A stretch of DNA of 64,000 bases from a virus (lineage: Duplodnaviria; Heunggongvirae; Uroviricota; Caudoviricetes). The position numbers and the translations under genes are program-made. The stretch's first letter is position 1. Each line of letters starts with the position of its first letter. Below are positions 33,613-61,985 of the stretch, piece after piece. The notes beneath the pieces are model-generated. The model was not told the DNA's origin and did not search any database. It saw only the letters and a list, made by a program, of their open reading frames with translations. Location: the IMG/VR virus record IMGVR_UViG_3300017917_002560, positions 74,096 to 138,095 of that record; one strand, written 5' to 3'.

Positions 33613-33885
33613 TTATTTCCCCCACTTCATTTGGAACCATGCAAATGTTTGTTCATCCATGATCCAGAAATTACCAGTGACGCTGTAGTCCCATCTTGGC
33701 CCTCTAGGCCCAAACGTTTCAAACAACCATGTTTTTTGTGCGTCATTTAGTGAACCATTTCGTTTGTACAACGTTACTGGTACAAACTTCTCTCCGTCCC
33801 ATATTTGTTTCTTTACAGGAGGTGGCGGTATTACTTCTGCGTCAACGTATTCTATTTGTTGAGTCCACCCCATTTGAGCCTCCAA
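33613..33885 (-). CDS. Small protein of WFxLKW C-terminal-motif family
   Basis: C-terminus FAWFQMKWGK; paralogues at 33852, 41105-42363. Confidence 0.45.
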   Translation of the reverse strand: MEAQMGWTQQIEYVDAEVIPPPPVKKQIWDGEKFVPVTLYKRNGSLNDAQKTWLFETFGPRGPRWDYSVTGNFWIMDEQTFAWFQMKWGK

Positions 33886-34199
33886 AAAGTTTCGTTTTGC
33901 TCGGACATTCGAGCCATGACTCTGTATATGTGTGCGTATGCGGAAATATCCATATGCCGTATCCAGTACGGAGTTTCTTCTGCATTACTCATAATCCACC
34001 GTCCGGCTTCACTGGTTTGCCATTGTAACAAATGCTCGGCCACCATGATGTCTGGATCTTCAACATCACTCATGCGTATGGTATGCACACATACATCGCG
34101 AAACCGCACTGGGCAACCGTTAATTAATTTAACTTCTTCAGTCTTCCAGTGCGAGAGCTTCGCAGTTTCGTAATCGTGTGCCATACTATAGTATAGCAA
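33852..34199 (-). CDS. Small protein of WFxLKW family (ends FWRLKWGGLNK)
   Basis: ORF; start possibly 34186 because promoter-like element overlaps 34190-34218. Confidence 0.4.
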   Translation of the reverse strand: MLYYSMAHDYETAKLSHWKTEEVKLINGCPVRFRDVCVHTIRMSDVEDPDIMVAEHLLQWQTSEAGRWIMSNAEETPYWIRHMDISAYAHIYRVMARMSEQNETFWRLKWGGLNK

Positions 34200-34218
34200 A
34201 TTGATTAATCTTTTGCAA
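34190..34218 (-). promoter_or_regulatory. Possible sigma70-like promoter (TTGCAA-17-TATACT)
   Basis: Read on minus strand; weaker match than other early promoters; overlaps thyX stop. Confidence 0.3.
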
Positions 34219-34897
34219 CTAAATCGGTGGCCATGGGGAAAATGTTGGCAATGACTTCGGCACAGGCACGTGCAATTTCCATGTGCTCTTTTTGTGTACC
34301 GTTGCCGCTACGCAGTTCGATAAAGTGTACCCAGCTACGCAGTGTGCCATTCATGTACATGCGACTCACTGTAAGACCTTCGGGCAACACAGCACGGGCT
34401 TGTTCTTTGGCAATACCGTTTTTGATGGCCCAGGAATATTCTTGTTTGACTGAGAACAACACACGCTTTTGAGCACGTTCCCACTCAATTGCCAATAGTC
34501 GTTGTTCTTCGTTGCTGTGATCAAGCTCTACACTGTTCTGTCGATTCTTTGTGTCCTGGAATCTTGCCTCACGTAACACAAACGCTTCGTCAAGTTCAGC
34601 TGTAGGATCAGCATATCGCTGGGAGAACTCTTGGAATGAGAAACTTCTGTGACGTAGAATCTGTCGTGCAATGTCACGGGTGGTTGTGATTTCGCAACAG
34701 GCAGACACCATTTCGAGTGGGCTCCAGTGCTTGTGTTTAACAAGGTATCTAATGAGCTTTTCGCTTGTTTCGGTATTGAATTGATTGGCTGGATTGGAGA
34801 CACGGGCACAATACGCAATGAGTTCTTGCGCATCTTCGATGCCCATGTCTCTAAACTCACCAGTGGGCTGGGAGTAAGAGACAAGTTTAACATTCAT
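34205..34897 (-). CDS. thyX: Flavin-dependent thymidylate synthase ThyX
   Basis: ThyX signature ILRHRSFSFQEFSQRY (RHRx7S...S.RY). Confidence 0.8.
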   Translation of the reverse strand: MNVKLVSYSQPTGEFRDMGIEDAQELIAYCARVSNPANQFNTETSEKLIRYLVKHKHWSPLEMVSACCEITTTRDIARQILRHRSFSFQEFSQRYADPTAELDEAFVLREARFQDTKNRQNSVELDHSNEEQRLLAIEWERAQKRVLFSVKQEYSWAIKNGIAKEQARAVLPEGLTVSRMYMNGTLRSWVHFIELRSGNGTQKEHMEIARACAEVIANIFPMATDLVAKD

Positions 34898-35199
34898 TTT
34901 AGGCTACTTAAAAGTTTGTCAGTTTCGGGTTGTACAATCTCGGCCACAGCAGTGACATCAACTACAAAGTCTAAGTCAATCACTGTGTCACCAAGTTCGT
35001 AAAGTGTGCGGTTTAGAACAATTTCGATCTCGTCTAAGTCTAAACCTTGGCGACGAAGTGTATGCAAATTAATGGTCTTCTGTCGACGACCACGTGTTTT
35101 GATAATAACCTTCTTGATGCACTCAAGGGGAACTTCGGTCTTGTTCACTTCGTTGATGATGTGTTCCCATTTTGCCAAGAACTCATCACTGAACTGCAT
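34894..35199 (-). CDS. Hypothetical protein (101 aa)
   Basis: ORF, ATGA overlap with thyX. Confidence 0.45.
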   Translation of the reverse strand: MQFSDEFLAKWEHIINEVNKTEVPLECIKKVIIKTRGRRQKTINLHTLRRQGLDLDEIEIVLNRTLYELGDTVIDLDFVVDVTAVAEIVQPETDKLLSSLK

Positions 35200-35914
35200 C
35201 GGCAGCCACCGCTTTCTTGCGAGTACGTGCCTTTGTGGCAGTTGGTTTGGCTGTTTCTTTTGCGTCAGACTTGTTGACTGAAGGGAACATCTTTTCAGCT
35301 TCTTTCTTCATACGTGCGGCTTCGGCAATAAGTCCCTTGGCTTCGGCTTCCATGCGTTGAGCTTGTGTCAACATGTTAGCAGCCAATGAGCGATCGTCTA
35401 GTGCGCCATCTGTAGGGGCCTGAACTGGCACTTCGCCACGTGCGCGAGCCGCGGCATCTCGTTCCAACTGTTGGCGTTTAAACTGTTGTTCGGCAGCTCG
35501 CTTTGTGGCTGGGTCAACAATGCCCTGGCTAGCATCAAGCTGTTCCATCTTTTTACGAGCTTCGTCACCGCTTTCCATTTCACGAACAATGCGATTGAGT
35601 TCGTCAAGCTTGACTGAACTTGTGGCAGTTGGGGTAACAATGACTTGGCTAGTTGGAACTTTCTTAAGCATACCTTCGCGGTGTAACGCTTCTAGAATAA
35701 CACGACCGTCGGGCAATAGGTTACGATGTAGCGCATTGGCCAAGGTGTTTTCTTGTTGGCCGCTGGGGCTTTCGATGACCTTCATAATGGTGTCGTGAAT
35801 ATGTGTTGGTAGCACTTCGGGGTAAATCACGAGACACATGTGATCCTCGCCAGGAATCTCTCTAAAAATGATAGCAACCTTGCGGTCACCATGTCTACCG
35901 ATATGTTTAAGCAT
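35186..35914 (-). CDS. Hypothetical protein with Ala/Lys-rich C-terminus
   Basis: Start assigned to MLKHIG preceded by AAGGAGAAAATA RBS; longer ORF to 36046 lacks RBS. Confidence 0.45.
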   Translation of the reverse strand: MLKHIGRHGDRKVAIIFREIPGEDHMCLVIYPEVLPTHIHDTIMKVIESPSGQQENTLANALHRNLLPDGRVILEALHREGMLKKVPTSQVIVTPTATSSVKLDELNRIVREMESGDEARKKMEQLDASQGIVDPATKRAAEQQFKRQQLERDAAARARGEVPVQAPTDGALDDRSLAANMLTQAQRMEAEAKGLIAEAARMKKEAEKMFPSVNKSDAKETAKPTATKARTRKKAVAADAVQ

Positions 35915-36110
35915 TATTTTCTCCTTGTGCTTGTTGAGTTTGATTCTGTTGCAGTTGAGCTTGAGCTTGCTCGACAAAATAAGCCAACTTGTCATACAGC
36001 AAGCCCACAGTACTAAGCTCGCCCATTTTAAATGCACCTCGTGCATGAGCGGCTTCCAGCAGAGCCTTTAAACTGGCTATGTCAGATACAGTGAGTTGTT
36101 TGTTTTCCAT
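35907..36110 (-). CDS. Hypothetical small protein
   Basis: ORF MENKQLTV...; start uncertain. Confidence 0.3.
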   Translation of the reverse strand: MENKQLTVSDIASLKALLEAAHARGAFKMGELSTVGLLYDKLAYFVEQAQAQLQQNQTQQAQGENNA

Positions 36111-36191
36111 ACTGATATTTAACGGCAAAGATCGTGTAGCACAAATAAAAACACCTCGTTTAGAGGTGTTTTGGCAAAATTGACCTGAAGT

Positions 36192-36677
36192 TTATTCAGT
36201 TTCATTATGTTCTTCTTGACCCTGAATTTGCTTTTTGAAAAATTCTAGTTGGTCAATTATGTTCTGTACGCCCTGTGCGTTCATGGTGATTTCACTGTAT
36301 CCCATTTGGAAGCTAACTCGATTGTCGCTGGTGATGCCCAATCGGTAGTAAGTCACTGCGGGTTTTTCTTTCTCAGCAAGCGGCACCGGGGCAGAATAAC
36401 CAGAACTAGGCACTTCAGGAAACGGAACAATCTTGCCGTCGTCCTTGCTTTTGTTTTTAAACCAATCAAACATTTTACGATCCCATTCAATATCTAAGTT
36501 AAGCCAACGCCCAAAGCTTGGAACTGCAAAGGGCAACAACAAACACGTTAACCAGAACAACTGCACGGATGCCGCTGGTACTTCCTTGAAGTAAAATGCA
36601 CAGGCCGCCCCAGCTGTCAAATAAACCGCAGACGTCCAGAACAACCAGTGACCACTTGTGCGTTCAAACAGTTTCAT
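36192..36677 (-). CDS. Putative membrane protein (two N-terminal hydrophobic helices)
   Basis: Hydrophobic stretches WLFWTSAVYLTAGAACAFYF and LFWLTCLLLPFAVPSF. Confidence 0.45.
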   Translation of the reverse strand: MKLFERTSGHWLFWTSAVYLTAGAACAFYFKEVPAASVQLFWLTCLLLPFAVPSFGRWLNLDIEWDRKMFDWFKNKSKDDGKIVPFPEVPSSGYSAPVPLAEKEKPAVTYYRLGITSDNRVSFQMGYSEITMNAQGVQNIIDQLEFFKKQIQGQEEHNETE

Positions 36678-36828
36678 GAGTAGTGTTTACCAAACAAGCA
36701 ATACACTGCAAACCATTTGCTGGGCGGGTTCTCAAGGAAGTAAGGATTAACACGGAATGTTATTTCCCAGTCCCTTGAGAACTGAAAGTGGCGCACCCCA
36801 AATCTGATGTTGAACCAAAGATTGCTCA

Positions 36829-37636: not shown

Positions 37637-37825
37637 TTAAAACAAGATTACGATCAAACTCATGATTGCTGTTGCTAGCAATGCAACAATTATACTATAG
37701 CCTAGATTTTTTGTCAACGACCATCGTTCCTTACCACTGAGACTGCGCCAAGCCATGATACCAAAATGTATCAACACAGCCAACACAACAAAAATAACAA
37801 ACAGTCTAAACATGTTAACCTCCAA
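37637..37825 (-). CDS. Small membrane protein (62 aa)
   Basis: Two hydrophobic segments. Confidence 0.4.
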   Translation of the reverse strand: MEVNMFRLFVIFVVLAVLIHFGIMAWRSLSGKERWSLTKNLGYSIIVALLATAIMSLIVILF

Positions 37826-39961: not shown

Positions 39962-39990
39962 ATTATAGCAAAACTCAAATAAATGGTCAA
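39962..39990 (-). promoter_or_regulatory. Early sigma70-like promoter TTGACC-17-TATAAT (extended TGn)
   Basis: Minus-strand read: cggTTGACCatttatttgagttttgcTATAATaa, 27 nt upstream of VWA gene start. Confidence 0.6.
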
Positions 39991-40127
39991 CCGTGCTTAT
40001 TTGTACTCTTCTTCGGCGGCCAGTAGGATTAGGTGGGCAAAATTTTGGCAAAAAATGTTAAACCAAAGGGTATCTAGTACATCTTCAGGGGCACCGGCTT
40101 CTACTGCAATTGCTCTTAATTCTTGGT

Positions 40128-41053: not shown

Positions 41054-41082
41054 ATTATAGCAAAAGAGCAAATTCAGGCCAA
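41054..41082 (-). promoter_or_regulatory. Early sigma70-like promoter TTGGCC-17-TATAAT
   Basis: Minus-strand read cgtTTGGCCtgaatttgctcttttgcTATAATag. Confidence 0.45.
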
Positions 41083-44255: not shown

Positions 44256-44284
44256 ATTGTAAGCGATTGTGATTTAATGGTCAA
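44256..44284 (-). promoter_or_regulatory. Early sigma70-like promoter TTGACC-17-TACAAT
   Basis: Minus-strand read cgtggTTGACCattaaatcacaatcgctTACAATac. Confidence 0.55.
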
Positions 44285-44290
44285 CCACGA

Positions 44291-44551
44291 TCAGTCAAGC
44301 AAAACAAAGTATTCTTCCGGATAGTTGCGGCTGAACCAATCCAGACCTGCTTGGACAGTTTTGTAGTCGCCCAGCATCTCGGCACCTTTGATGACATCGT
44401 ACACTGCCACGGCTTCCGGGGTAAGAGTACACGTTTCACCTGAGTACGGATTCTGCACTTGCACTGGCCCTTGATCCAGTACTTCTACATCAAACGGTAA
44501 CTTCATTGTTGACCTCATGTTGTTTACTATAACTCTATTATAGCAAAACAC
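44291..44551 (-). CDS. Hypothetical protein (86 aa)
   Basis: ORF. Confidence 0.45.
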   Translation of the reverse strand: MFCYNRVIVNNMRSTMKLPFDVEVLDQGPVQVQNPYSGETCTLTPEAVAVYDVIKGAEMLGDYKTVQAGLDWFSRNYPEEYFVLLD

Positions 44552-44565
44552 GAATAATTGGTCAA
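44537..44565 (-). promoter_or_regulatory. Early sigma70-like promoter TTGACC-17-TATAAT
   Basis: cggTTGACCaattattcgtgttttgcTATAATag. Confidence 0.6.
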
Positions 44566-44570
44566 CCGCG

Positions 44571-46940: not shown

Positions 46941-46969
46941 ATTATAGCATCAGGAGAATAATTGGTCAA
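46941..46969 (-). promoter_or_regulatory. Early sigma70-like promoter TTGACC-17-TATAAT
   Basis: ggTTGACCaattattctcctgatgcTATAATat. Confidence 0.6.
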
Positions 46970-46971
46970 CC

Positions 46972-48261
46972 TTAGTATCTGTATGTGTCGGGTTTGTATG
47001 GCCCGTCAACATTAACACTAATGTATGCGGCTTGTTCTGGGGTAAGAGTTGTGAGTTTTGCACCTACTTGAGCCAAGTGTAATCTAGCCACTTGCTCGTC
47101 AATGTGCTTGGGCAACAGATACAATTTGCCATCCTCATAACGGTCAGGATTGTTGTACAATTCAATCTGTGCCAATACTTGGTTGGTAAAACTGTTTGAC
47201 ATCACATAGCTGGGGTGTCCTGTGGCACAGCCCAGGTTTACCAATCTACCTTTGGCCAGCACAATAATCTTGGTGCCATTGCTGAGTGTGACATGATCCA
47301 CTAGCGGCTTGATCTCGTCCCAGTGGCAGTCTTTTAAGCCAGCAATGTCAATTTCGCTGTCAAAGTGACCAATGTTACACACAATGGCATTGTTTTTCAT
47401 TTGCAACATATGGTAGTGAGTGATAACATCAATGTTGCCTGTGGCAGTGACAAAGATATCGGCTTCACGACATGCTTCGTCCATTGTGACAACACGGTAT
47501 CCTTCCATGGCGGCTTGTAGAGCACAGATTGGATCAACTTCAGTAATCCAGACTTGCGCACTCAACGCACGTAGGGCTTGAGCAGAGCCTTTGCCCACAT
47601 CGCCATACCCGCACACCACAGCAATCTTGCCAGCAATCATAACATCAGTAGCACGTTTAATAGCGTCCACTAAGCTTTCTCTGCAACCGTACAAGTTATC
47701 AAACTTGCTCTTGGTAACTGAGTCGTTGACGTTGATAGCAGGCATTTTGAGGGTGCCGGCAGCTACACGTTCCAAGAGCTTGTGAATTCCTGTTGTAGTT
47801 TCTTCTGTTACACCAATAATGTCCGGTAGTAGATCTGGCCTGCGATCATGCACGTATGCAGTTAAATCATGCCCGTCGTCCAGCAACATGTTGGGGCGCC
47901 AACCATTAGCACCTTCCAGCGTTTGTTCAATACACCACCAGTATTCTTCTTCTGTTTCCCCCTTCCATGCAAACACAGGAATACCACGAGCGGCAAGTGC
48001 AGCCGCGGCATGATCTTGTGTAGAGAAAATGTTACAGCTTGACCAACGCACCTGGGCACCTAGGTCAATCAAAGTTTCTACTAGTACAGCAGTTTGAATA
48101 GTCATGTGCAAACTGCCGGCAATCCGAGCGCCTGCCAAGGGCTTCTGTCCAGCATACTCACGACGTACTGCCATGAGCCCAGGCATTTCACTTTCTGCAA
48201 TTAAAATTTCTTTGCGGCCCCAATCGGCCAGGGTAATATCTGCTACTTTATAATCACTCAT
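46972..48261 (-). CDS. ahcY: S-adenosyl-L-homocysteine hydrolase
   Basis: [19 protein letters not shown] start, NAD-binding [15 protein letters not shown], conserved HxTxQTAVLIETL-like block; ORF track start at 48375 lacks homology so start set at 48261. Confidence 0.8.
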
Positions 48262-48508
48262 TATCGGTCCATTTTTTAGTTTGGTCAAATCGTCGTTCTT
48301 GCATGGTGCGCTCTTTAAAGAATTTTCTAGGGTTGCCACACATTGCGCAATTTGAATCACCACATGTAGTGGCATGAATTTTACTTAGCCTATGTTCTGG
48401 GCCAGTGGGAAATCCGTGTGCTTTGGCAATACGTTTTTGCTTTTTTATTGCGGCTTCCTCGCGAAGAAGTCGGCGGCTGTGTTTAAAACGTTCAACTTGA
48501 TTGCTCAT
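48254..48508 (-). CDS. Hypothetical basic protein with [14 protein letters not shown] Cys cluster
   Basis: ORF downstream of promoter 48529. Confidence 0.45.
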
Positions 48509-48528: not shown

Positions 48529-48557
48529 ATTATATAGTAGCCAATAACTCAATGCAA
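48529..48557 (-). promoter_or_regulatory. Possible sigma70-like promoter TTGCAT-17-TATAAT
   Basis: gcagTTGCATtgagttattggctactaTATAATgt. Confidence 0.4.
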
Positions 48558-50652: not shown

Positions 50653-50681
50653 ATTGTAATAGTATATACCTATAAAGTCAA
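50653..50681 (-). promoter_or_regulatory. Early sigma70-like promoter TTGACT-17-TACAAT upstream of peroxiredoxin
   Basis: gcTTGACTttataggtatatactatTACAATtaac. Confidence 0.5.
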
Positions 50682-51580: not shown

Positions 51581-51609
51581 ATTATAGCAGAAGTTCGTTA
51601 CTGTGTCAA
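51581..51609 (-). promoter_or_regulatory. Early sigma70 consensus promoter TTGACA-17-TATAAT
   Basis: gcTTGACAcagtaacgaacttctgcTATAATgtaa. Confidence 0.6.
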
Positions 51610-54057: not shown

Positions 54058-54140
54058 TGGTGCCCAGGGAGGGACTCGAACCCTCACGGTTTCCCGCCGG
54101 ATTTTGAGTCCGGTGCGTCTACCTATTCCGCCACCTGGGC
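54058..54140 (-). tRNA. tRNA-Leu(CAA), class II
   Basis: Perfect anticodon stem ccgga/tccgg with loop cucaaaa; 11-nt variable arm cgg-gaaa-ccg. Confidence 0.6.
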
Positions 54141-54144
54141 AATT

Positions 54145-54219
54145 TGGTGGGCCCACTAGGAATTGAACCTAGACTCAAGCGATTATGAGTCGCCTGCTTT
54201 ACCATTAAGCTATAGGCCC
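54145..54219 (-). tRNA. tRNA-Met or Ile2 (CAU)
   Basis: Anticodon loop cucauaa; 1-72 paired so elongator-type. Confidence 0.55.
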
Positions 54220-54226
54220 AAAACTT

Positions 54227-54478
54227 TTATTTCTTTGCATCCATTCCGTCTAACACCCAGACTTGAATTGCGTCTAGCTTGTTGGGAGATTCAAATACTT
54301 CTGGGCATTTATGAGCCACTCGATCCAAGTCCCAAGAACCTGGATAATGACGCAACACTGCCAGGGCACGTTGTCGAACAACTTTGGGAACCCGCGGCGT
54401 CTTGGCGGGATTGCAAAGGTCCATCAAGAACTGCTCTGCTGACCTTACTGCTCGATAACGTTCGTCCGGTAGTGTCAT
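54227..54478 (-). CDS. Hypothetical protein (83 aa)
   Basis: ORF downstream of promoter 54506. Confidence 0.45.
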   Translation of the reverse strand: MTLPDERYRAVRSAEQFLMDLCNPAKTPRVPKVVRQRALAVLRHYPGSWDLDRVAHKCPEVFESPNKLDAIQVWVLDGMDAKK

Positions 54479-54505
54479 GATCCTTGCTCTTTAAACTATA
54501 GATGT

Positions 54506-54534
54506 ATTATAGCAATCTAGTATTTAATTGTCAA
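54506..54534 (-). promoter_or_regulatory. Early sigma70 consensus promoter TTGACA-17-TATAAT
   Basis: ctggTTGACAattaaatactagattgcTATAATac. Confidence 0.6.
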
Positions 54535-54659
54535 CCAGTGCTGTGCTTCTTGCTTGTGGGTCAGTATGCATTTTCTAAAAAAGAATCGCTGTAAAACGTT
54601 CTGTTGGTGAAAAATGCATACTTTGGTTTACCTTTTCTGCAAACAACAGTATTACCTTT

Positions 54660-54736
54660 TGGTACCCTGGACGGGACTCGAACCCGTAGAACCTGCGACC
54701 TCAACGCAGTGTGTCTGCCAATTCCACCACCGGGGC
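54660..54736 (-). tRNA. tRNA with anticodon GAG (Leu-type) but class I (short variable arm) shape
   Basis: Perfect anticodon stem ctgcg/cgcag, loop uugaggu; acceptor has one C-A mismatch. Confidence 0.45.
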
Positions 54737-55078
54737 TTATAACCAATACTCTCGACGTGGCTTGCTTTCAATCATGACCTCATGGTCGGGATCACGCTGG
54801 TAACGATGCAGTTCTCGACGTGCTCGCACTTTGTACGGCTTTTGTGAGAACTCGCGATGAAACCAACTGGGCCCACGGTAGTTCATCCAGTGATCTTTTT
54901 TGTCACTGTGGAACTCGGCTAGCTTTTTACGACCTTCTTTACTGTGCGCATCGATTCGCTGATACGCCCAGCGATATGGAGCAGTACGAACTAGCTCTCT
55001 CAACACGTCAGCTTCAAGCCAACGATGTTTCTTAAAACGATATGTACGACTCATCTTTCCTCCTATTGTGATAGTCAC
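54737..55078 (-). CDS. Hypothetical basic protein (113 aa)
   Basis: ORF ending exactly at tRNA 5' end. Confidence 0.45.
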   Translation of the reverse strand: MTITIGGKMSRTYRFKKHRWLEADVLRELVRTAPYRWAYQRIDAHSKEGRKKLAEFHSDKKDHWMNYRGPSWFHREFSQKPYKVRARRELHRYQRDPDHEVMIESKPRREYWL

Positions 55079-55119
55079 AATCGGTGGAAAGTCCTTTTGT
55101 TTTTCTTGATATACATGTT

Positions 55120-55494
55120 TTACCTTACTGCTCGTGCTCGAGCATCAATTACATCATTCATGTCGCATTTGACAACGACATTAGTGTATGTATCAACAAA
55201 TCCGCTGGCATGATCTGTTACGCGGTTGTCGGGTTCGTGATATGTTCTAATACGTTCCTGCCCAGCAAGATACCGTTGTGTATCTTCGTGAAAGTGGGCC
55301 TGCACTCTGCTCAAACAAGTAATGTATGCCGCACGTCGATTGTCTTCTCGACTGCGACTGTTAGTACCATTGGCTTGAATGCCAGTGGGCTCGTGTATGC
55401 AACGGCAACAGTTTTGATGCTTGTTGCGATGCTGTCCGCCTTTTCCTGTGCCCGAGAACCACTCAAAGCGGAATTGGTCTTCTGTGATTTTCAT
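55120..55494 (-). CDS. RF-1/ArfB-like GGQ-domain peptidyl-tRNA hydrolase
   Basis: SGTGKGGQHRNKHQNCCRCIHEPTGI matches class I release factor/ArfB GGQ domain (SGxGGQHVNK...HxPTGI). Confidence 0.65.
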   Translation of the reverse strand: MKITEDQFRFEWFSGTGKGGQHRNKHQNCCRCIHEPTGIQANGTNSRSREDNRRAAYITCLSRVQAHFHEDTQRYLAGQERIRTYHEPDNRVTDHASGFVDTYTNVVVKCDMNDVIDARARAVR

Positions 55495-55502
55495 GGCATT
55501 CC

Positions 55503-55883
55503 TTACAGTAGTGGTAGAGTGCCTGTAACAGCGTCTACGCGGTCTTCACGGTCTGGGCCAACAGCAACGGCGGTATAGGTTTTTACACCACCAAACTCTG
55601 TGAGCCCAGCGTCTTGGATTAAGCTAGCAACAAGTCCTGCCGCTAGTGCCTGATTGTGTATGGCCAACAGCTCTTGTTCACTGTTGACATATACACAGAT
55701 TTTTTTAAAACGTCCTGTAAGCCAAGGGCGCACACGATCGTCCATTTTTAATTCCAGCATGTCATTCTTTACTTGACACAGACCTAGGATAGCACCCATG
55801 GAGGCATGAGCACCTTGTGCTACCATTTTGCCTTTGCGCATGTTTAAATCTTTGCGTAACACTATGACTTGTTTGTGTTCCAT
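55503..55883 (-). CDS. PTH2-family peptidyl-tRNA hydrolase
   Basis: KQVIVLRKDLNMRKGKMVAQGAHAS resembles PTH2 N-terminal block. Confidence 0.65.
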   Translation of the reverse strand: MEHKQVIVLRKDLNMRKGKMVAQGAHASMGAILGLCQVKNDMLELKMDDRVRPWLTGRFKKICVYVNSEQELLAIHNQALAAGLVASLIQDAGLTEFGGVKTYTAVAVGPDREDRVDAVTGTLPLL

Positions 55884-55897
55884 GTGTGTCTCCTTGT

Positions 55898-55973
55898 TGG
55901 TGCCGCCCCCAGGGATCGAACCTGGTTCCTCGGTGCTTCAAACCGGTGCTATGACCACATCAGCTAAAGCGGC
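55898..55973 (-). tRNA. tRNA-Phe(GAA)
   Basis: Anticodon loop uugaagc. Confidence 0.55.
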
Positions 55974-55978
55974 ATGTT

Positions 55979-56053
55979 TGGTACATCCTCACGGTTTCGA
56001 ACCGCGGACCCTTTCCGTGTAAAGGAAACGCTCTACCCCTGAGCTAAGGATGC
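55979..56053 (-). tRNA. tRNA-Val(UAC)
   Basis: Anticodon arm tttcc/gtgtaaa/ggaaa. Confidence 0.6.
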
Positions 56054-56058
56054 GTTAA

Positions 56059-56150
56059 TGGTACTCCCGGGGAGAGTCGAACTCCCATTAGCGGCTTATC
56101 TAGCACTTACCCGTTATAAGCGGGCCGTTTTACCATTAAACTACGGGAGC
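56059..56150 (-). tRNA. Class II tRNA (89 nt) with apparent anticodon UAU; isotype unclear
   Basis: Good acceptor, D arm gttt/taccatt/aaac, T arm; 22-nt variable region; anticodon loop cuuauaa. Confidence 0.4.
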
Positions 56151-56158
56151 CTTGTTGT

Positions 56159-56234
56159 TGGTTGCGGGGCTTGGATTTGAACCAAGGATGGCAAAGGCTT
56201 ATGAGACCTCGCTGGTGACCGGACCCTCCCCGCG
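56159..56234 (-). tRNA. Initiator tRNA-fMet(CAU)
   Basis: 5' CGCGGGG with C1·A72 mismatch, T loop UUCAAAU, anticodon loop cucauaa, as in bacterial tRNAfMet. Confidence 0.65.
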
Positions 56235-56241
56235 CCAGTTG

Positions 56242-56808
56242 TTACAGTAGGCCCACTTCCTTGAGTGAACTTACTATGTCTTCGGTCAACTCAATTTCTG
56301 TGCGAACATTGAGTTCAAGAATTTCGTCGTTGAGCTTTTGTTTTTGCTTCTTGAGGTGCAGTACTAGAGCCTTGAATGTGTCAATTTGTTCTTGACGCAG
56401 TACACCAGTGTTCACAGTGTCACCGTAGCCGTAAATGCGGCTCTTGGCTTCAACATTGCGAAGCTTTTCCAGCTTGCCGTTGATGAGACCCAGTGCTTCT
56501 TGCACATCGGCCTTGGCTAGCTCAGTCATGTGACCAATGCGCTTGTCCAAGTAGGCGCATTCAGCCAACTTGTCTGTGACACCGCACTGTGCATTGGCCA
56601 TGCCAATCATGCTACGAATGCGATACAAGATACGTGTGAGTCGGTCACGTTGGTCGTCACGTGCCACCAACTGAGTGTTGAGAGCAAACAACACCACTTC
56701 TGCGTCCTCAAACTCGTTGAGTGTAGCAGTGGATTTGATTTCAATACCACGGATGAACTCTTGGATTACAGTTTGCAGGGCATTGGCTTTACGCAGAGTG
56801 ATTTTCAT
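56242..56808 (-). CDS. Hypothetical coiled-coil protein (188 aa)
   Basis: ORF downstream of promoter 56829. Confidence 0.5.
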   Translation of the reverse strand: MKITLRKANALQTVIQEFIRGIEIKSTATLNEFEDAEVVLFALNTQLVARDDQRDRLTRILYRIRSMIGMANAQCGVTDKLAECAYLDKRIGHMTELAKADVQEALGLINGKLEKLRNVEAKSRIYGYGDTVNTGVLRQEQIDTFKALVLHLKKQKQKLNDEILELNVRTEIELTEDIVSSLKEVGLL

Positions 56809-56828
56809 TTTGAATTCCTTAAAAAATA

Positions 56829-56857
56829 ATTATATGCTGAATCAATGTGTTAGTCAA
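56829..56857 (-). promoter_or_regulatory. Early sigma70-like promoter TTGACT-17-TATAAT
   Basis: ttgTTGACTaacacattgattcagcaTATAATtatt. Confidence 0.55.
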
Positions 56858-57142
56858 CAAAAAACGGATAAAGAAACGGCAAGTAAATAGCCGGACAACA
56901 TGCAACAGTCAATCGCCCCAGAACACTAATCTCGAGCTAACAACTATCAAAAAACAGAGGACTCAATATCTCCAAGGATCAACAAACAGGGCTATTACGC
57001 CGGACTACCTTGGATCTCTGAGTCACGGAGGCTGTGCAAGCCAATTGTCAGTAATTCCATTTTCACATGGATTACCGTTTTGCTACTCCTCATCTCCGCT
57101 TCTTCAACCGGTTGGTTTTGCAAAAACCAACAAAACAAAACT

Positions 57143-57217
57143 TGGCTCCCCAGCGTGGGCTCGAACCACGGACCAAAGGATTAACAGTCCTCTACTCTAC
57201 CTCTGAGCTACTAGGGA
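57143..57217 (-). tRNA. tRNA-Asn(GUU)
   Basis: Anticodon loop cuguuaa, acceptor 6 WC+1 GU, G73. Confidence 0.65.
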
Positions 57218-57241
57218 ATGGGTTAACACAGTATTTGTCCT

Positions 57242-57270
57242 ATTATACTCCCTGTGTTATGGAGAGTCAA
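57242..57270 (-). promoter_or_regulatory. Early sigma70-like promoter TTGACT-17-TATAAT driving tRNA-Asn
   Basis: TTGACTctccataacacagggagTATAATagg. Confidence 0.55.
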
Positions 57271-57276
57271 CTGTTA

Positions 57277-57708
57277 TTATAAAAAAGCGTACTCGTAATT
57301 GACCGATTCTTCGTTGTCGCTCAGCACAGTTGCGCCGTTTTTCAAGTGGAATCGTCGAGCCATTTCGGTCTTGGGACTCAAGGTCACAAAACGTGTGATT
57401 TCAGGAAACTGTCTACGTATCTCTTCTACAGTGGCACGTAACAGTTCTGCGCCGGCACCAGGAGCATAACTCCATATGGTGTAGAAAACCGCAGTGTTAG
57501 GGTTCTCTGCGTCACCTAAGTCGCTGACTCGAGTAGGAACTCGATCCAGCAGGTTCACGCAGACCATGGCACGTGGGCGGTCTTCAACTAGAGCACTGAC
57601 AAATCGATTCTTACCAACCCTGAACTCTCTAGAGATTTCTGGTCTAACAGGATCATCTTTGACGTACTCCAGTAGTGGATCTAGTGGGTTCGCTACAAAC
57701 GTCAACAT
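57277..57708 (-). CDS. Hypothetical protein (143 aa)
   Basis: ORF. Confidence 0.45.
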   Translation of the reverse strand: MLTFVANPLDPLLEYVKDDPVRPEISREFRVGKNRFVSALVEDRPRAMVCVNLLDRVPTRVSDLGDAENPNTAVFYTIWSYAPGAGAELLRATVEEIRRQFPEITRFVTLSPKTEMARRFHLKNGATVLSDNEESVNYEYAFL

Positions 57709-57761
57709 AATATTTGTATATATCTCAGATGCTGAATTTTTGTATTACAGCAATATTACAA

Positions 57762-57837
57762 TGGAGCGGGTAGCGAGATTCGAACTCGTCTCTTGAGGTT
57801 TGGAAGACCGCCGTGCAACCGTAAACACTTTACCCGC
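57762..57837 (-). tRNA. tRNA-Gly(UCC)
   Basis: Anticodon loop cuuccaa, U73 discriminator, perfect acceptor gcgggta/tacccgc. Confidence 0.6.
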
Positions 57838-58131
57838 ATCTTAGTGAAACACTCTAAAGGTTTTCTTCCCGGGACCCAGATCCACCTTAAACTGGTCGAT
57901 GTTTTGTAGAATGTTTCATTAAGATGTTTAGCTACTCTCACCACAAGAGCCCTAAACTGGGTGGTTACCCCGTCCACGTTCTTTTCCATTTAGACGGGCA
58001 ATCGTCCCCGCCTTTGTGATTTCTCAAGTCGCCCATGTAAGCGGGCCTTGCAGTAGATCCAATGCACTGTGTCTTTTATGGTACAGACAATTGACCCCCG
58101 TTTACTAACGGCTACGGGATGCCGGGTTGTT

Positions 58132-58215
58132 TGGTGCCCCAGGGGAGACTCGAACTCCCACGCCTTTCGACAATGGCTTCTAAGACCATCGTGTCTACCA
58201 TTCCACCACCAGGGC
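58132..58215 (-). tRNA. tRNA-Leu(UAG), class II
   Basis: Anticodon loop cuuagaa, 13-nt variable region. Confidence 0.55.
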
Positions 58216-58239
58216 ATTTGTTATATTATAACAAACTCA

Positions 58240-58713
58240 TCAAGCATTTGCAACCTTTAATCCACGCATACGGTCAGCGGCATAGCTTGCGGCAAATGCG
58301 TCGGGCTTGACCATGGGAATAATGTTGCAAGTGCCTCGAATGTAACCAATGGCTTGTGCAATGACATTTGAACTCTTGTGCATATCGTTGGGGTTTAAGT
58401 CCAAATGCACTTCAACATGTCGTCCTTCAAGGACATCGGCTAATTTTAGATACAGTTCGCTGACTTTGTAAACTTCAGTCATCAAACGTGTGTTGGGTTT
58501 GTCAACTCGATCGTAATCGCGTTCTTTGGTAATCTCACCAAACAGTTTGCAACCATTGTTACCATTGACGTGAACAACGATGGCGGCTGTGTAGTAGGCC
58601 CAAAACTCTCCTCCGATCTTTACACGTTCGCTATCGCAACCAAGATACACACGAGTATCTGGGCTTTGTGCTAGAATAAATTCACGCACTACATCAATGT
58701 CAAACTTCTTCAT
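58240..58713 (-). CDS. Hypothetical protein (start MKKFDIDV)
   Basis: ORF between tRNAs; longer N-terminus to 58767 unlikely. Confidence 0.45.
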   Translation of the reverse strand: MKKFDIDVVREFILAQSPDTRVYLGCDSERVKIGGEFWAYYTAAIVVHVNGNNGCKLFGEITKERDYDRVDKPNTRLMTEVYKVSELYLKLADVLEGRHVEVHLDLNPNDMHKSSNVIAQAIGYIRGTCNIIPMVKPDAFAASYAADRMRGLKVANA

Positions 58714-58734
58714 GATTACCTCTCGTAAAAATCT

Positions 58735-58808
58735 TGGCATCCCACCAGGGACTCGAACCCCGACCAACGGTTTTGGAGACCGCTATGCTGCCATTACACC
58801 AGCGAGAT
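58735..58808 (-). tRNA. tRNA-Trp(CCA)
   Basis: Anticodon loop cuccaaa, D arm gugu/aauggca/gcau. Confidence 0.6.
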
Positions 58809-58820
58809 ATTTTGTATATA

Positions 58821-58894
58821 TGGTAGCCAGTACAGGTAACGATCCTGTGTCGCACGATTATCAGTCGTGTGCTCTACCTTTGAGCTAACCGGCT
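58821..58894 (-). tRNA. tRNA-Ile(GAU) with unusual T loop AUCGUUA
   Basis: Perfect anticodon stem cacga/tcgtg, loop cugauaa. Confidence 0.6.
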
Positions 58895-58930
58895 ATGAAT
58901 TTTTGTGCAAGTTTTTAAAGAACAGCTTGT

Positions 58931-58959
58931 ATTATACAAGAATGTTGCTTTATGGTCAA
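58931..58959 (-). promoter_or_regulatory. Early sigma70-like promoter TTGACC-17-TATAAT driving tRNA-Ile block
   Basis: TTGACCataaagcaacattcttgTATAATac. Confidence 0.55.
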
Positions 58960-58962
58960 GCT

Positions 58963-59037
58963 TGGTGGTAAAGGTGAGATTCGAACTCACACCGGGCACC
59001 GTATGAAGGTGTTGCACAACCATTATGCTACTTTACC
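58963..59037 (-). tRNA. tRNA-Met or Ile2 (CAU), second elongator-type copy
   Basis: Anticodon loop uucauac, perfect acceptor ggtaaag/ctttacc. Confidence 0.55.
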
Positions 59038-59160
59038 ATATAAAAACATTTTCAATTTCAGTTCAATGCTGGCACAAAGAACCTTTCGCCACTGCCAGGT
59101 GACCGAAGAGATTACTCGCTCTAATTGCGAGGTCTGTCCGTCAAAAATGTTTTTATATGG
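59036..59160. repeat. 17-bp perfect inverted repeat (ccatataaaaacatttt / aaaatgtttttatatgg) enclosing a 91-nt hairpin-rich spacer between two tRNAs
   Basis: Arms 59036-59052 and 59144-59160; right arm includes CCA of tRNA-Lys, left arm abuts 5' end of tRNA(CAU). Confidence 0.7.
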
Positions 59161-59235
59161 TAGGAGCACTGGGATTCGAACCCAGACCTGGCGGATTAAA
59201 AGTCCGCTGTGCTAAACCGTTGACACTATACTCCC
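59158..59235 (-). tRNA. tRNA-Lys(UUU)
   Basis: Perfect anticodon stem gcgga/tccgc, loop cuuuuaa. Confidence 0.65.
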
Positions 59236-59365
59236 GTTTGTCTTTCATCTTACTATCGCGTCTTAGAGCTTTGTTGCTCTTGCGGTGCGAGCCCGCCTTC
59301 CGTTTGCTTGCCAGTACGGCAAATATGTTACGAGGTTTCACTTCGTTTCTCCTTAAAAAATAAAT

Positions 59366-59444
59366 TGGTCCGAGTAGAAGGATTCGAACCTTCGATCTCC
59401 TGCTCCCAAAGCAGGCGGATTAAACCAGACTTTCCTACACTCGG
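59366..59444 (-). tRNA. tRNA-Pro(UGG)
   Basis: Perfect anticodon stem cctgc/gcagg, loop uuuggga. Confidence 0.6.
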
Positions 59445-59450
59445 ATATTA

Positions 59451-59525
59451 TGGTGGACCGTACCGGGATCGAACCGGTCCTTAAGGCTTGCAAAGCCCTC
59501 GTGCCCCCAACAACACTTACAGCCC
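59451..59525 (-). tRNA. tRNA-Ala(UGC)
   Basis: Anticodon loop uuugcaa; G3:U70 wobble present. Confidence 0.65.
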
Positions 59526-59540
59526 ATAATACTAACTAAC

Positions 59541-59615
59541 TGGCCCGGCGTAAGGGAATCGAACCCCTATTCGCACTTTAGAAGAATGCTGTCCTATCCA
59601 TTGAACGAACGCCAG
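59541..59615 (-). tRNA. tRNA-Arg(UCU)
   Basis: Anticodon loop cuucuaa. Confidence 0.55.
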
Positions 59616-59622
59616 AATAACT

Positions 59623-59698
59623 TGGGGTGTCCAACCGGTATCGATCCGGTACTACCGCTTTCACAGAGCAGTGTGCAGGCCACTACACTATGGACACC
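59623..59698 (-). tRNA. tRNA-His(GUG) with encoded G-1 and C73
   Basis: Anticodon loop cugugaa; extra 5' G opposite C73; T loop AUCGAUA. Confidence 0.65.
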
Positions 59699-59867
59699 AT
59701 TGATAAATTTGAGTAAATGCTACAGGATTCGAACCTGTACCTGCGTCCGCCTTCGCCGCTTACTAAGTCTGCAAACTTTTCGTCGGGTACTACCTTCTGC
59801 TGTGCTTGCCAGTACACCACGCAACCTGTCATAGTTCATTGCAGTGCCCTATGAGCAGTCTCAAAAT

Positions 59868-59943
59868 TGGCATCCCCACCAGGAGTCGAACCTGGGACTA
59901 GACCTTCGCAGGGTCTAATGATTTCCTATTTCACCACAGGGAT
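59868..59943 (-). tRNA. tRNA-Arg(GCG)
   Basis: Perfect anticodon stem agacc/ggtct, loop cugcgaa. Confidence 0.5.
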
Positions 59944-59950
59944 ATAAACT

Positions 59951-60027
59951 TGGCCGGCCCTGAGGGATTCGAACCCCCAACAATCAGTTTCGAAGACTGA
60001 TAGTCTATCCAATTGACGTAAAGGCCG
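59951..60027 (-). tRNA. tRNA-Arg(UCG)
   Basis: Perfect anticodon stem tcagt/actga, loop cuucgaa. Confidence 0.55.
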
Positions 60028-60087
60028 AATTGTTATAAGGTGCTCGTGTTGGCGCTTGAATCCGCGATAGCCCCTCTCTTCACGGCT

Positions 60088-60900
60088 GGTCCTTGCGCTG
60101 TCTAGAATTGGCAAGTATTTCAGTTGTTCCGCTGTAGCTACTACACAAGCAAAATTACTATTCTGAAACACACTATGCCACGCTTTGAACCTGGACTCTT
60201 AGTAATGTGTTTTAGAATAGTGCTAACGCTGAGATTACACGTTAGCCATAAGCACCTCTAGCATTATAGTCCGCCTTGCGAGCAAACCTTCTCTAGACAT
60301 CCACATAAGCCCTTGCGGTACCTACGTCTGCTTACAGCATCGCCGTTTTTAAAGACAGGCAGTAGTCTTGTCGCCATATGCTATTCTACGCTATCTACTC
60401 CGTTGACCTTGCGAGCCATTCACAGTCGCTAAACCGTTACGAAACTTCCAGCATAAACCAATTTCACCTTGCGAGCTACGTTGGACTTGATTCACTTGCG
60501 TGTCAAGTATTAGATGCTTTTCACATATGACCGAGTCAGTCTTTGCATTTTATTGTTAGAAGGAGTCGAACCTTCAGTCTATTCTTTAACAGAGAATTGG
60601 CCTACCATTAGCCTATAACGAACCTACTGCGATGTGCTGACTCAGTTGCCGCATACTCTTTTGGAATACACGATACAACACACCACGTACCTTTTGCCTC
60701 GCGAGCTACTCAGTAGTCTTTCGCGACCAATGTAACAACGTTTCGCAACGTGTCCCATCAACCACTAAAACTGCATACAAGCCCTTGGGAGCGACCCCTC
60801 GGACACGTACACTACCCTTTCTCATACCAGTTGACTGATTGGTTTGTATGGAAGTCAGCACCACCTGTTACTTTTCATTGCCCCGTGTTCCTTGCGGCAC
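60088..60900. repeat. Dispersed copies (>=8) of CCTTGCGAGC-like motif in ~1.1-kb noncoding stretch
   Basis: Copies at ~60090, 60274, 60311, 60415, 60475, 60697 (palindromic CCTCGCGAGC), 60783, 60890; irregular spacing. Confidence 0.55.
60551..60622 (-). tRNA. tRNA-Asn(GUU)-like, probable pseudogene (two acceptor mismatches, no CCA)
   Basis: Good T arm, anticodon arm attct/ttaacag/agaat, D arm; acceptor 5/7. Confidence 0.35.
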
Positions 60901-61276
60901 GTCGAACAATGTTCTTTCCTCATACATCAGCTTCGCTGTTACATCCACCGGTCTTATCAGTGAACGCTACCTCACGGTAGTGAGCAGGCTTGTCTAAACA
61001 GACCATTACTGGCGGAGTTATGTAGGCATACCTCCTTTGGCTGTGTCACCACAGTTATCTTTCATACACGGCAAGCCGTGTATAGGATGTTAAACCACCC
61101 TTGAAATCTTTTGTCTAATAGACATACTACTGCACACTCACAGGAATCGAACCTGCCAACCACACCAATGGGCGAAGCTGTTTCCGCAACATCGGCCTGC
61201 GCATTTAGCCTTTGTGTGCATGAGTATATCTACTATTTTTTAAAGAACGCTTTAGTTAATTTCTAACTAAGCATGT

Positions 61277-61305
61277 ATTGTAGCATCACATGAATAATGT
61301 GTCAA
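61277..61305 (-). promoter_or_regulatory. Early sigma70 consensus promoter TTGACA-17-TACAAT at head of tRNA/noncoding block
   Basis: gtggTTGACAcattattcatgtgatgcTACAATac. Confidence 0.55.
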
Positions 61306-61306
61306 C

Positions 61307-61382
61307 CACAAAGACCTGGTACACCGTATGGGAATCGAACCCATCTTACCAACGTGAAAGGCTGGTGTCCTAAACCGATAGA
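61307..61382 (-). tRNA. tRNA-Glu(UUC)
   Basis: Anticodon loop cuuucac. Confidence 0.55.
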
Positions 61383-61559
61383 CGAACGGTGCATTGTATA
61401 GGTTTTTGAGAGCCTAACTATCCTCCTGGGAGGACTCGCTAGATTGTCTCGAATAGTCAAGTTTAACCAACCGACTTCAGTCATACTGTAGTGTCAACAC
61501 AGTCAACCCCACTGTGCCTAGACTGGCAGGGACTCTAAACTATCGTCTATCTCAAAACT

Positions 61560-61636
61560 TGGAGCACAGGGTGGGACTCAAACCCACGAATCAACGGATT
61601 TGCAATCCGCGCCATTAGTCGCTCTGGTACCTGTGC
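61560..61636 (-). tRNA. tRNA-Cys(GCA)
   Basis: Anticodon loop uugcaaa, U73, perfect acceptor; T loop UUUGAGU (U56). Confidence 0.55.
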
Positions 61637-61642
61637 ATTGAC

Positions 61643-61717
61643 TGGAGCAGGATATCGGGTTCGAACCGATGACATTCTCGTTGGCAACGAGACATTCTAC
61701 CACTGAATTAATCCTGC
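61643..61717 (-). tRNA. tRNA-Gly(GCC)
   Basis: Perfect anticodon stem tctcg/cgaga, loop uugccaa, U73, perfect acceptor. Confidence 0.65.
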
Positions 61718-61775
61718 AAATTTTAAAAAGCCTAGGGACTCAAGTCACGTCAGGAGTGGGTATAGGCTATATTAG

Positions 61776-61850
61776 TGGTGCCCCGGGGGTGAATCGAACA
61801 CCCGACCTCGGATTACAAAACCGATGTTTTACCACTAGAACTAACGGGGC
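61776..61850 (-). tRNA. tRNA-Thr(UGU)
   Basis: Anticodon loop uuuguaa. Confidence 0.55.
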
Positions 61851-61859
61851 AAATTAACT

Positions 61860-61949
61860 TGGCCGAGAGTCAGGGAGTCGAACCCTGTCACCGTGTTTCC
61901 ACGATGTACGGATTAGCAATCCGCTGCCTTACCATCCGGCCCACTCTCG
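61860..61949 (-). tRNA. tRNA-Ser(GCU), class II
   Basis: Anticodon loop uugcuaa, G73, 20-nt variable arm with cgug/cacg stem, 3-bp D stem. Confidence 0.65.
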
Positions 61950-61956
61950 AAAGTCT

Positions 61957-61985
61957 ATTATATATGTTAGTTGAACAAGTGTCAA
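61957..61985 (-). promoter_or_regulatory. Early sigma70 consensus promoter TTGACA-17-TATAAT immediately upstream of tRNA-Ser(GCU)
   Basis: TTGACActtgttcaactaacataTATAATag. Confidence 0.55.

Follow-up and report, generated by a model that had tools for sequence, protein, structure and literature searches.

A motif of the form TTGACC-N17-TATAAT recurs on the minus strand of a 64,000-nucleotide (nt) stretch of DNA from an uncultivated tailed virus (Caudoviricetes; IMG/VR record IMGVR_UViG_3300017917_002560, positions 74,096 to 138,095), referred to here as the window. The locus raises the question of whether these matches are promoters and, if they are, which RNA polymerase would read them and at what stage of infection. 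A first-pass annotation has described them as a stereotyped early promoter reused at least 16 times on the minus strand of a T4-like phage, set against a single T4-late signal on the plus strand. The sites are best explained as promoters read by the unmodified housekeeping sigma-70 (RpoD) RNA polymerase holoenzyme of the host, a reading that the sequence supports with a probability of about 0.85. From the motif, its statistics, strand, position and conservation we infer the polymerase, the sigma factor, the exact start sites and the early timing.

Statistics, position and conservation of the minus-strand motif

Both strands of the window were scanned for TTGACC-N17-TATAAT with at most one mismatch, and the counts were compared with those in shuffled sequence. 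The scan returned 15 matches against 0.44 expected, with 13 of the 15 on the minus strand, and none of 100 shuffles reached 15; the motif is thus more frequent than in shuffled sequence. A weight matrix was built from related metagenomic loci only, the window being excluded to avoid circularity. With this family matrix, 14 minus-strand sites in the window scored at least 14 bits, and all 14 reached at least 20 bits, as against one plus-strand site of at least 14 bits (a minus:plus ratio of 14:1) and a null expectation of 0.15 per strand. The 14 strong sites and four weaker ones (Table 1) all lie on the minus strand between 34 and 62 kb.

The composition of the sites is that of a near-consensus sigma-70 promoter. 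Among 17 curated window sites the -35 element is close to TTGACA (TTGAC in 14 of the 17) and the -10 element is close to TATAAT (TATAAT in 13, TACAAT in three and TATACT in one). The spacer is exactly 17 bp at every window site, well inside 17 +/- 1 bp, and a TGn extended -10 marks a subclass of nine of the 17 sites against about 6% expected from composition. At all 15 coordinates given in the first-pass annotation the minus strand carries a -35 and a -10 element set 17 bp apart. It had called the site at 34190 weak, which is correct (TTGCAA/TATACT), and the site at 48529 is weak too (TTGCAT). Two sites had been overlooked, namely the 12/12 site at 37689-37717 and the TG-extended site at 58225-58253. 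The claim of at least 16-fold reuse has to be read more loosely, since the full motif GGTTGACC-N14-TGCTATAAT is exact at three sites only (39962, 44537 and 46941). It occurs within three mismatches at eight sites against 0.19 expected, and is a recurrent consensus rather than a sequence reused exactly 16 times.

Near-consensus sites of sigma-70 type precede gene groups and tRNA blocks in the sense orientation, as had been proposed, and they are conserved across the family. An ATG preceded by a Shine-Dalgarno (SD) sequence lies 19-62 nt beyond the end of 11 sites, and a tRNA lies 7-36 nt beyond the end of four. P61277 is the exception, with neither an SD/ATG nor a tRNA directly downstream. Three sites (P51581, P58931 and P61957) are squeezed between tRNAs and begin 3-9 nt past the preceding one. 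The genes behind the promoters encode the phrog_1314 protein, a MoxR-type ATPase, a phosphatase-like protein, AdoHcy hydrolase and a peroxiredoxin; small open reading frames (ORFs) and tRNA blocks also stand behind them.

With loose criteria, a generic scan does return more promoter-like sites (50-55 per 20 kb) than it does in shuffled sequence (about 32), as would be expected if the matches were chance products of AT-rich intergenic composition. This explanation is refuted by the high-stringency matches, whose number is about 30-90 times that expected and which are conserved and specific in strand and spacer.

Table 1. Promoter-type features of the window. Strong and weaker refer to the family matrix; aa, amino acids; orthologous upstreams are the regions upstream of orthologous genes in relatives.
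Feature	Coordinates	Strand	Sequence	Bits	Position and context
P37689, strong	37689..37717	-	TTGACA-N17-TATAAT, 12/12	25.3	62 nt before ORF 37626-36829 (lipoprotein-like, phrog_200); site in 2/2 orthologous upstreams
P39962, strong	39962..39992	-	GGTTGACC-N14-TGCTATAAT, exact	29.1	26 nt before ORF 39935-38652 (phrog_1314, annotated 'HNH endonuclease' or hydrolase)
P41054, strong	41054..41082	-	TTGGCC-N17-TATAAT with TGC	20.2	25 nt before 66-aa ORF (41028); -10 spanned by inverted repeat TTTGCTAT/ATAGCAAA
P44256, strong	44256..44284	-	GGTTGACC-N17-TACAAT	24.9	50 nt before MoxR-type AAA ATPase gene 44205-43117
P44537, strong	44537..44567	-	exact full motif	28.1	30 nt before 71-aa ORF (44506)
P46941, strong	46941..46971	-	exact full motif	30.3	19 nt before phosphatase-like ORF 46921-46433
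P48529, weaker	48529..48557	-	weak -35 TTGCAT, N17-TATAAT	below family-matrix threshold	20 nt before 84-aa ORF (48508), which precedes AdoHcy hydrolase gene 48255-46972; directly follows strong intrinsic terminator 48577-48596; site in 6/10 orthologous upstreams
P50653, strong	50653..50681	-	TTGACT-N17-TACAAT	22.8	50 nt before peroxiredoxin (AhpC/TSA) gene 50602-50069; site in 10/16 orthologous upstreams
P51581, strong	51581..51609	-	TTGACA-N17-TATAAT, 12/12, with TGC	26.7	24 nt before 64-aa ORF (51556); begins 7 nt after tRNA-Thr(ggt)
P54506, strong	54506..54534	-	GGTTGACA-N17-TATAAT, 12/12, with TGC	28.8	27 nt before 83-aa ORF (54478), then tRNA-Met and tRNA-Leu
P56829, strong	56829..56857	-	TTGACT-N17-TATAAT	21.8	20 nt before ORF 56808-56242, then tRNA block Met-Ile-Val-Phe (56234-55898); site in 10/46 more distant orthologous upstreams
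P57242, strong	57242..57270	-	TTGACT-N17-TATAAT	21.5	24 nt before tRNA-Asn (57217-57143)
P58225, weaker	58225..58253	-	weaker -35 TTGCAA, with TGT-TATAAT	11.5	9 nt before tRNA-Leu(tag) (58215)
P58931, strong	58931..58959	-	TTGACC-N17-TATAAT	25.4	36 nt before tRNA-Ile and tRNA-Trp; begins 3 nt after tRNA-Met
P61277, strong	61277..61305	-	GGTTGACA-N17-TACAAT with TGC	28.0	nearest promoter upstream of GOLLD block
P61957, strong	61957..61985	-	TTGACA-N17-TATAAT, 12/12	22.4	ends 7 nt before tRNA-Ser(gct), which heads a Ser-Thr-Gly-Cys block; begins 9 nt after tRNA-Ser(tga)
Weak candidate, weaker	34190..34218	-	TTGCAA-N17-TATACT with TGC	11.4	just past thyX stop codon
Weak candidate, weaker	48260..48288	-	TTGACC-N17-GATAAT	13.1	in 3' end of 84-aa ORF, before AdoHcy hydrolase start
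TATAAATA	5166..5173	+	T4-late-type -10		overlaps stop codon of ORF 4565-5170; 26 nt before 599-aa virion structural gene 5200-6999
GATAAATA	4398..4405	+			7 nt before ATG of 50-aa ORF (4413-4565)
Sigma-70-type promoter	7998..8026	+	TTTACC-N17-TATAAT		after terminator hairpin 7983-7998; ends 6 nt before ATG of ORF 8033-8341, without SD

Conservation was followed in more than 140 related IMG/VR loci, comprising 80 early-region loci and 67 tRNA-region loci. In the early-region loci, which amount to 1.2 Mb and were oriented by the AdoHcy hydrolase gene, TTGAC-N17-TATAAT matched at 10 or more of 11 positions occurs 276 times in sense and 21 times in antisense. Other spacings in the same loci gave 13 matches at N16, 39 at N18 and 15-19 at N15 and N19. 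The tRNA-region loci gave 271 sense and 21 antisense matches. In an orthologue test that counted a site within 130 nt upstream, a site was kept in 74 of 149 distinct upstreams of orthologues of promoter-bearing window genes, as against 12 of 164 for orthologues of window genes without a promoter. Every distinct upstream keeps a site at the phrog_1314 gene (11/11) and at the ATPase gene (18/18). An alignment of 19 distinct regions upstream of the ATPase gene has only TTGAC and TA.A.T invariant, with no gap between the two, and with flanks and leader length variable. Orthologous promoters that are free to diverge except in the -35, the -10 and their spacing bear the signature of selection on function.

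The same comparison bears on the possibility that the terminator/promoter units are mobile or recombinogenic cassettes like the T4-type PeSL, and that their similarity reflects spread by recombination. An identical 16-mer, GGTTGACCAATTATTC, is common to the sites at 44537 and 46941 and is also found in several relatives, many promoters lie within inverted repeats, and gene order around the promoters differs among relatives. However, recent copying would not leave orthologous promoters divergent everywhere but in the -35, the -10 and the spacing, and no flanking direct repeats or cassette boundaries were seen. Spread as cassettes is thus rather improbable, and it would in any case be compatible with the promoters also being functional.

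Sequence beyond the hexamers was studied in a cluster-weighted logo of the family (276 sites, 210 distinct sequences, 183 clusters). Each of the five TTGAC positions carries 1.5-2.1 bits, and the sixth -35 base is A or C. Outside the hexamers there is G at -36 (0.27 bit), an AT-rich spacer (0.05-0.28 bit per position), T at -15 (0.50 bit), G at -14 (0.35 bit) and A at -6 (0.29 bit). G is avoided around +1, and A or T is conserved at the seventh nucleotide after the -10, which may hint at a start site. An upstream A-tract UP element was looked for in the logo, which holds only a faint A/T preference at -41 to -43; an UP-like element has been reported for phage CBB. The extended -10 and spacer preferences are known features of the sigma-70 holoenzyme. 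The conserved flanks had been taken to imply recognition beyond the hexamers; an extra signal does exist (TGn, G-36, A-6 and the AT-rich spacer), but it is ordinary sigma-70 contact and no new specificity.

These extras are also what would be cited for a phage-controlled temporal class, in which the host core polymerase with a phage factor of the sigma-70 family, or a phage-modified holoenzyme, reads the sites. The sites share G-36, TGC before the -10 and the AT-rich spacer, and CBB encodes a sigma factor with regions 2, 3 and 4 in its presumed early region (PMC5259590). Such an arrangement is nevertheless very improbable here. With its 17-bp spacer and TGn, the motif conforms to the universal housekeeping consensus; the extra-flank positions carry at most 0.5 bit each; a scan of about 50 window ORFs found no sigma-like domain; and the related phage PA5oct needs the host polymerase.

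The polymerase and the timing of transcription

In sigma-70, region 4.2 reads the -35, regions 2.3-2.4 read the -10 and region 3.0 reads the extended -10. With the host holoenzyme as the reader, region 4.2 would contact TTGAC(A/C), regions 2.3-2.4 would contact TATAAT at the optimal 17-bp spacing, and region 3.0 would read T-15 G-14 in about half of the sites. A match this near to consensus requires no phage factor, and transcription from the sites should for that reason start immediately on entry of the DNA into the cell. The minus strand from about 37.7 to 62 kb would be split into many short transcription units, some of them closed by intrinsic terminators, that would carry auxiliary metabolic genes, small ORFs, blocks of a 40-tRNA island and most likely the GOLLD RNA. 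The plus-strand structural genes would be served by a different, T4-late-like (T/G)ATAAATA element.

Protein comparisons place the window near cultured phages in which promoters of this kind have been described. The window has 44% G+C, and a megablast search for a close GenBank phage found none, returning only a tRNA match; no recorded contig came up when the exact ATPase protein sequence was looked up. The closest isolates are PA5oct (Pseudomonas), Phosso (Sinorhizobium) and Atu_ph07 (Agrobacterium), at 37-50% amino-acid identity. Rak2-like jumbo phages are more distant, with one virion protein in common, and identities overall range from 23 to 50%. The window belongs to an uncultivated family in IMG/VR with more than 120 contigs at 70-88% identity, the longest of 364 kb.

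PA5oct (Arenbergviridae) is rifampicin-sensitive, encodes no RNA polymerase and relies on that of the host; 32 intergenic promoters with a TTGAC -35 and a TATAATA -10 have been reported around its RNA-seq start sites (PMC7318152). The window has the same TTGAC/TATAAT-type promoters, although no DNA similarity to PA5oct was found; protein identities are 50% for the ATPase, 45% for the phrog_1314 protein and 44% for the virion protein. A TTGACT...TGCTTTAAT element lies upstream of the ATPase orthologue in PA5oct. In CBB and GAP32, which are Rak2-like, RpoD-like promoters cluster before many short ORFs in a presumed early region, and ATAAATA, which resembles the T4 late TATAAATA, precedes structural genes; a gp55-like factor is present (PMC5259590). 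CBB has the gp55-like gene but no gp33 or gp45 (PMC5259590). The window resembles both phages in its combination of RpoD-like early-type sites with ATAAATA-type sites at structural genes. A search of the window for the CBB/GAP32 middle motif TGAAACG(-N-)TATA, in which TGAAACG takes the place of the -35, gave scattered matches, none of them in a promoter context.

T4 has strong sigma-70 extended -10 promoters for early genes and its tRNA cluster, and a bare TATAAATA -10 for virion genes. The -35 of T4 early promoters is a GTTTAC variant. T4 late promoters with TATAAATA are reportedly served by gp55, gp33 and gp45 (Geiduschek & Kassavetis 2010, as cited in PMC5259590). The window appears to share the T4 logic of host-type early promoters with a bare TATAAATA at a virion gene, but its -35 is the canonical TTGAC. 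The name T4-like, which the first-pass annotation had used, does not hold. Megablast and protein comparison gave no sequence similarity to Tevenvirinae and relatives, and no tested window protein or DNA matches T4-type phages. With protein relatives that are PA5oct-like, Phosso, Atu_ph07 and Rak2-like, the phage is not T4-like in the usual sense.

On the plus strand, TATAAATA stands upstream of the 599-aa virion gene with no -35 element, as in a T4-type late promoter. The motif had been placed at 5165; it is present and starts at 5166. It occurs once in the window against 2.0 expected, so that the window alone lends it no statistical support, and the single match is at chance level. Its support comes from relatives: 41 of 51 distinct orthologous upstreams of the virion gene retain it, and in structural-region relatives it occurs 74 times in sense against once in antisense, with about 14 expected on each strand (analytic Markov expectation). 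The conserved part takes in an invariant GTA codon for valine, the stop codon and, directly behind the stop, the non-coding triplet ATA; conservation extends to synonymous sites, and the next 10-20 nt vary freely. The PA5oct homologue of the 599-aa protein is a virion protein detected by mass spectrometry, and TATAAATA was not found before its gene, gp359. In the window the virion gene lies among plus-strand genes at 14-9880, next to a T4 gp10-like baseplate gene.

This motif had been called the only plus-strand signal, which does not stand, as two further conserved elements are found there. The element GATAAATA at 4398 has a counterpart in 34 of 76 related loci, where a positional regular expression finds NATAAATA in the corresponding position, and it is a candidate second late-type site that would leave almost no leader; the 50-aa ORF behind it gave no tblastn match. 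The sigma-70-type promoter at 7998-8026 is part of a conserved unit at 7983-8035, made up of a terminator hairpin, TTTAC(C/T), 17 bp, (TG)TATAAT, 5-6 nt and an ATG without an SD. Of 52 distinct orthologous upstreams, 43 carry TA[TC]AAT at a distance of 5-6 nt from the ATG, and the -35 is TTTACT in 30. ORF 8033-8341, which lies within the virion-gene module, is from this arrangement a candidate for a leaderless mRNA. A further plus-strand match, TTGACA-N17-TATGAT at 11440-11468 (18 bits), falls within ORF 11121-11735, has no conserved counterpart in relatives and is treated as probably due to chance.

The sigma-70-type unit in the structural module bears on the timing. The sites may be functional sigma-70 promoters that are not specifically early, being constitutive or of a middle phase, with a strand layout that is no temporal partition. 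Sequence by itself gives no timing, and the minus-strand genes at 24-34 kb are without such sites. Nonetheless, the genes driven from the minus-strand sites (tRNAs, small ORFs and auxiliary metabolic genes) are cargo typical of the pre-replicative phase, the virion gene has the conserved TATAAATA instead, and the same split is found in CBB and GAP32. A non-early role is for these reasons unlikely, though of the alternatives considered here it deserves the most weight. The early/late partition of the strands that had been proposed holds as a general tendency and not as a rule, because the family-matrix scan found no sigma-70 site at the minus-strand sugar-nucleotide genes at 24-34 kb and the plus strand has its own sigma-70-type unit. 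The sugar-nucleotide pathway itself (30679-33612, minus strand) consists of genes for an NAD-dependent epimerase/dehydratase, a DegT-type aminotransferase and a GFO/IDH/MocA oxidoreductase.

Several points weigh against early reading by the unmodified host holoenzyme. Conservation of the sites drops to about 20-40% in more distant relatives with different gene order. The phage is known from its sequence. The scope is 64 kb of the genome, and a phage-encoded sigma-70-family factor as in CBB may exist. Near-consensus promoters could also stay active throughout infection, their early timing being drawn from cargo and layout. Finally, the sites at 34190 and 48260 are weak, and the latter is poorly conserved at its gene. 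The status of the 34190 site as a promoter is uncertain because there is no clear gene downstream, and the 48260 site is probably not functional, since only three of 62 orthologous upstreams carry a site. Reading by host sigma-70 polymerase is still the preferred explanation.

Short leaders, hairpins and the tRNA island

The tRNA island extends over 51617-63978 on the minus strand, with 39 tRNAs found by ARAGORN and a 40th by Rfam (63898-63978). Small ORFs, an RNaseH-like gene and a GIY-YIG endonuclease gene (63201-63809) lie among the tRNAs, and the island holds duplicates for Met (three copies), Leu(caa), Asp, Asn, Thr(tgt) and Glu (two each). Across the relatives (L042-L121 and L199-L265), the distance from the -10 to the mature 5' end of a tRNA has a sharp peak at 7-9 nt (19 of 51 distinct pairs, with eight or more tRNA types). 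Examples in the window are P61957 (61950-61957) and P58225 (58216-58225). A gap of this length would give tRNA precursors leaders of only 0-3 nt.

A GOLLD RNA (RF02032) lies in the island at 60226-60686 on the minus strand. It scores 207.7 bits against a gathering score of 150, which places it in the Rfam family, covers model positions 1-416 of 416 and has a tRNA-Asn (60551-60622) embedded. GOLLD RNAs that carry tRNAs in their linker have been described before from the tRNA islands of phages (PMC12286853). PA5oct has 12 tRNAs, as against the 40 tRNAs and the GOLLD RNA of the window phage. An Rfam scan for GOLLD in nine tRNA-region relatives found none; a conserved non-coding block of about 900 nt (61111-60204) was later found in 11 other related loci at 77-85% identity (nhmmer/blastn). 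In the GOLLD relatives the nearest sigma-70 site is 260-300 nt upstream or none is detected, and in at least one of them (L201) a tRNA intervenes between site and GOLLD. With sites that are distant, interrupted by a tRNA or undetected, it is plausible but unproven that P61277 drives the GOLLD RNA.

Hairpins are found at several promoters. The spacer of P46941 holds an anti-SD, TTATTCTCCT, complementary to the SD AGGAGAATAA of ORF 46921-46433. RNA that reads through the promoter (46912-46972, minus strand) folds at -21.9 kcal/mol with a z-score of -5.3, and RNA from the predicted P46941 start site is unstructured. In the folding model, read-through RNA would hide the SD of this ORF and RNA from its own promoter would expose it. 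The GGAG pairs with co-varying spacer sequence in all ten orthologues examined (-11.8 to -21.8 kcal/mol). This conservation was assessed by folding each sequence separately, and column-wise covariation was dropped because MAFFT set the arms out of register. In T4, translation of gene e (lysozyme) and of I-TevI is reportedly gated by a promoter-internal hairpin (McPheeters et al. 1986; Gott et al. 1988). As there, the 5' arm of the SD-sequestering hairpin at P46941 lies upstream of the predicted start. Unlike the late internal promoter of the T4 genes, P46941 is of sigma-70 type, and its anti-SD, predicted here, is inside the promoter spacer.

Hairpins over the -10 are commoner than expected, but in a subset of sites only. 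A perfect inverted repeat of 7 bp or more spans the -10 in five of the 17 window sites against 7% of permuted controls, and the folding z-score falls below -2 at seven of the 17, compared with 10% of control windows (Mann-Whitney p = 0.05). The sites at 41054, 44537, 57242, 58225 and 58931 are also embedded in hairpins that span the -10. The anti-SD in the P46941 spacer, the promoters 7-9 nt from tRNAs and the SD-less ATG directly after a promoter point to the use of promoter position as a post-transcriptional switch, beyond its role as a start signal, in this family of jumbo phages. This suggestion is tentative and is given somewhat less than an even chance.

Neighbouring genes and meaning for the family

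The minus strand of the window holds auxiliary metabolic genes for ThyX (34205-34897), AdoHcy hydrolase (46972-48255), a CMD-family protein (48610-49125) and an AhpC/TSA peroxiredoxin (50069-50602). The AdoHcy hydrolase gene (via P48529) and the peroxiredoxin gene (P50653) have a promoter upstream; none lies directly upstream of the ThyX and CMD genes. The AdoHcy hydrolase fits with the many radical-SAM and other SAM-using genes of the window. On the plus strand, downstream of the baseplate genes, five ORFs at 12658-24364 have radical-SAM matches, most of which are below the Pfam cut-off, and two have SPASM domains. A NodU/CmcH-type carbamoyltransferase gene (22868-24364) follows them, and the region looks like a biosynthetic or modification cluster. 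On the minus strand at 51692-53280, ORF 52495-53280 (weak B12-binding match) overlaps ORF 51692-52576 (Radical_SAM match); they possibly represent a single B12-dependent radical-SAM gene that a frameshift, or crude ORF calling, could have divided. A perfect hairpin, AAAATGCCCCTTTAAGGGGCATTTTTT, at 24366-24392 between the convergent genes 22868-24364 (plus) and 24391-25416 (minus) is likely a bidirectional terminator.

Overall, the motif is a real and ordinary host-type promoter scheme already described in cultured relatives, and the result leaves the current understanding of phage transcription unchanged. The side observations most worth an experiment are the hairpin-gated translation, the minimal tRNA leaders and the candidate leaderless gene of the late module. 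Being compact and near consensus, the promoters might be put to use as strong, portable parts. The sites provide a usable transcription map for freshwater-type jumbo phages of a large, uncultivated family that has 40-tRNA islands and GOLLD RNA. The map places the tRNAs, and most likely GOLLD, under host-type promoters and implies that the family would begin infection with the host sigma-70 polymerase, like PA5oct and unlike the phiKZ-type jumbo phages.

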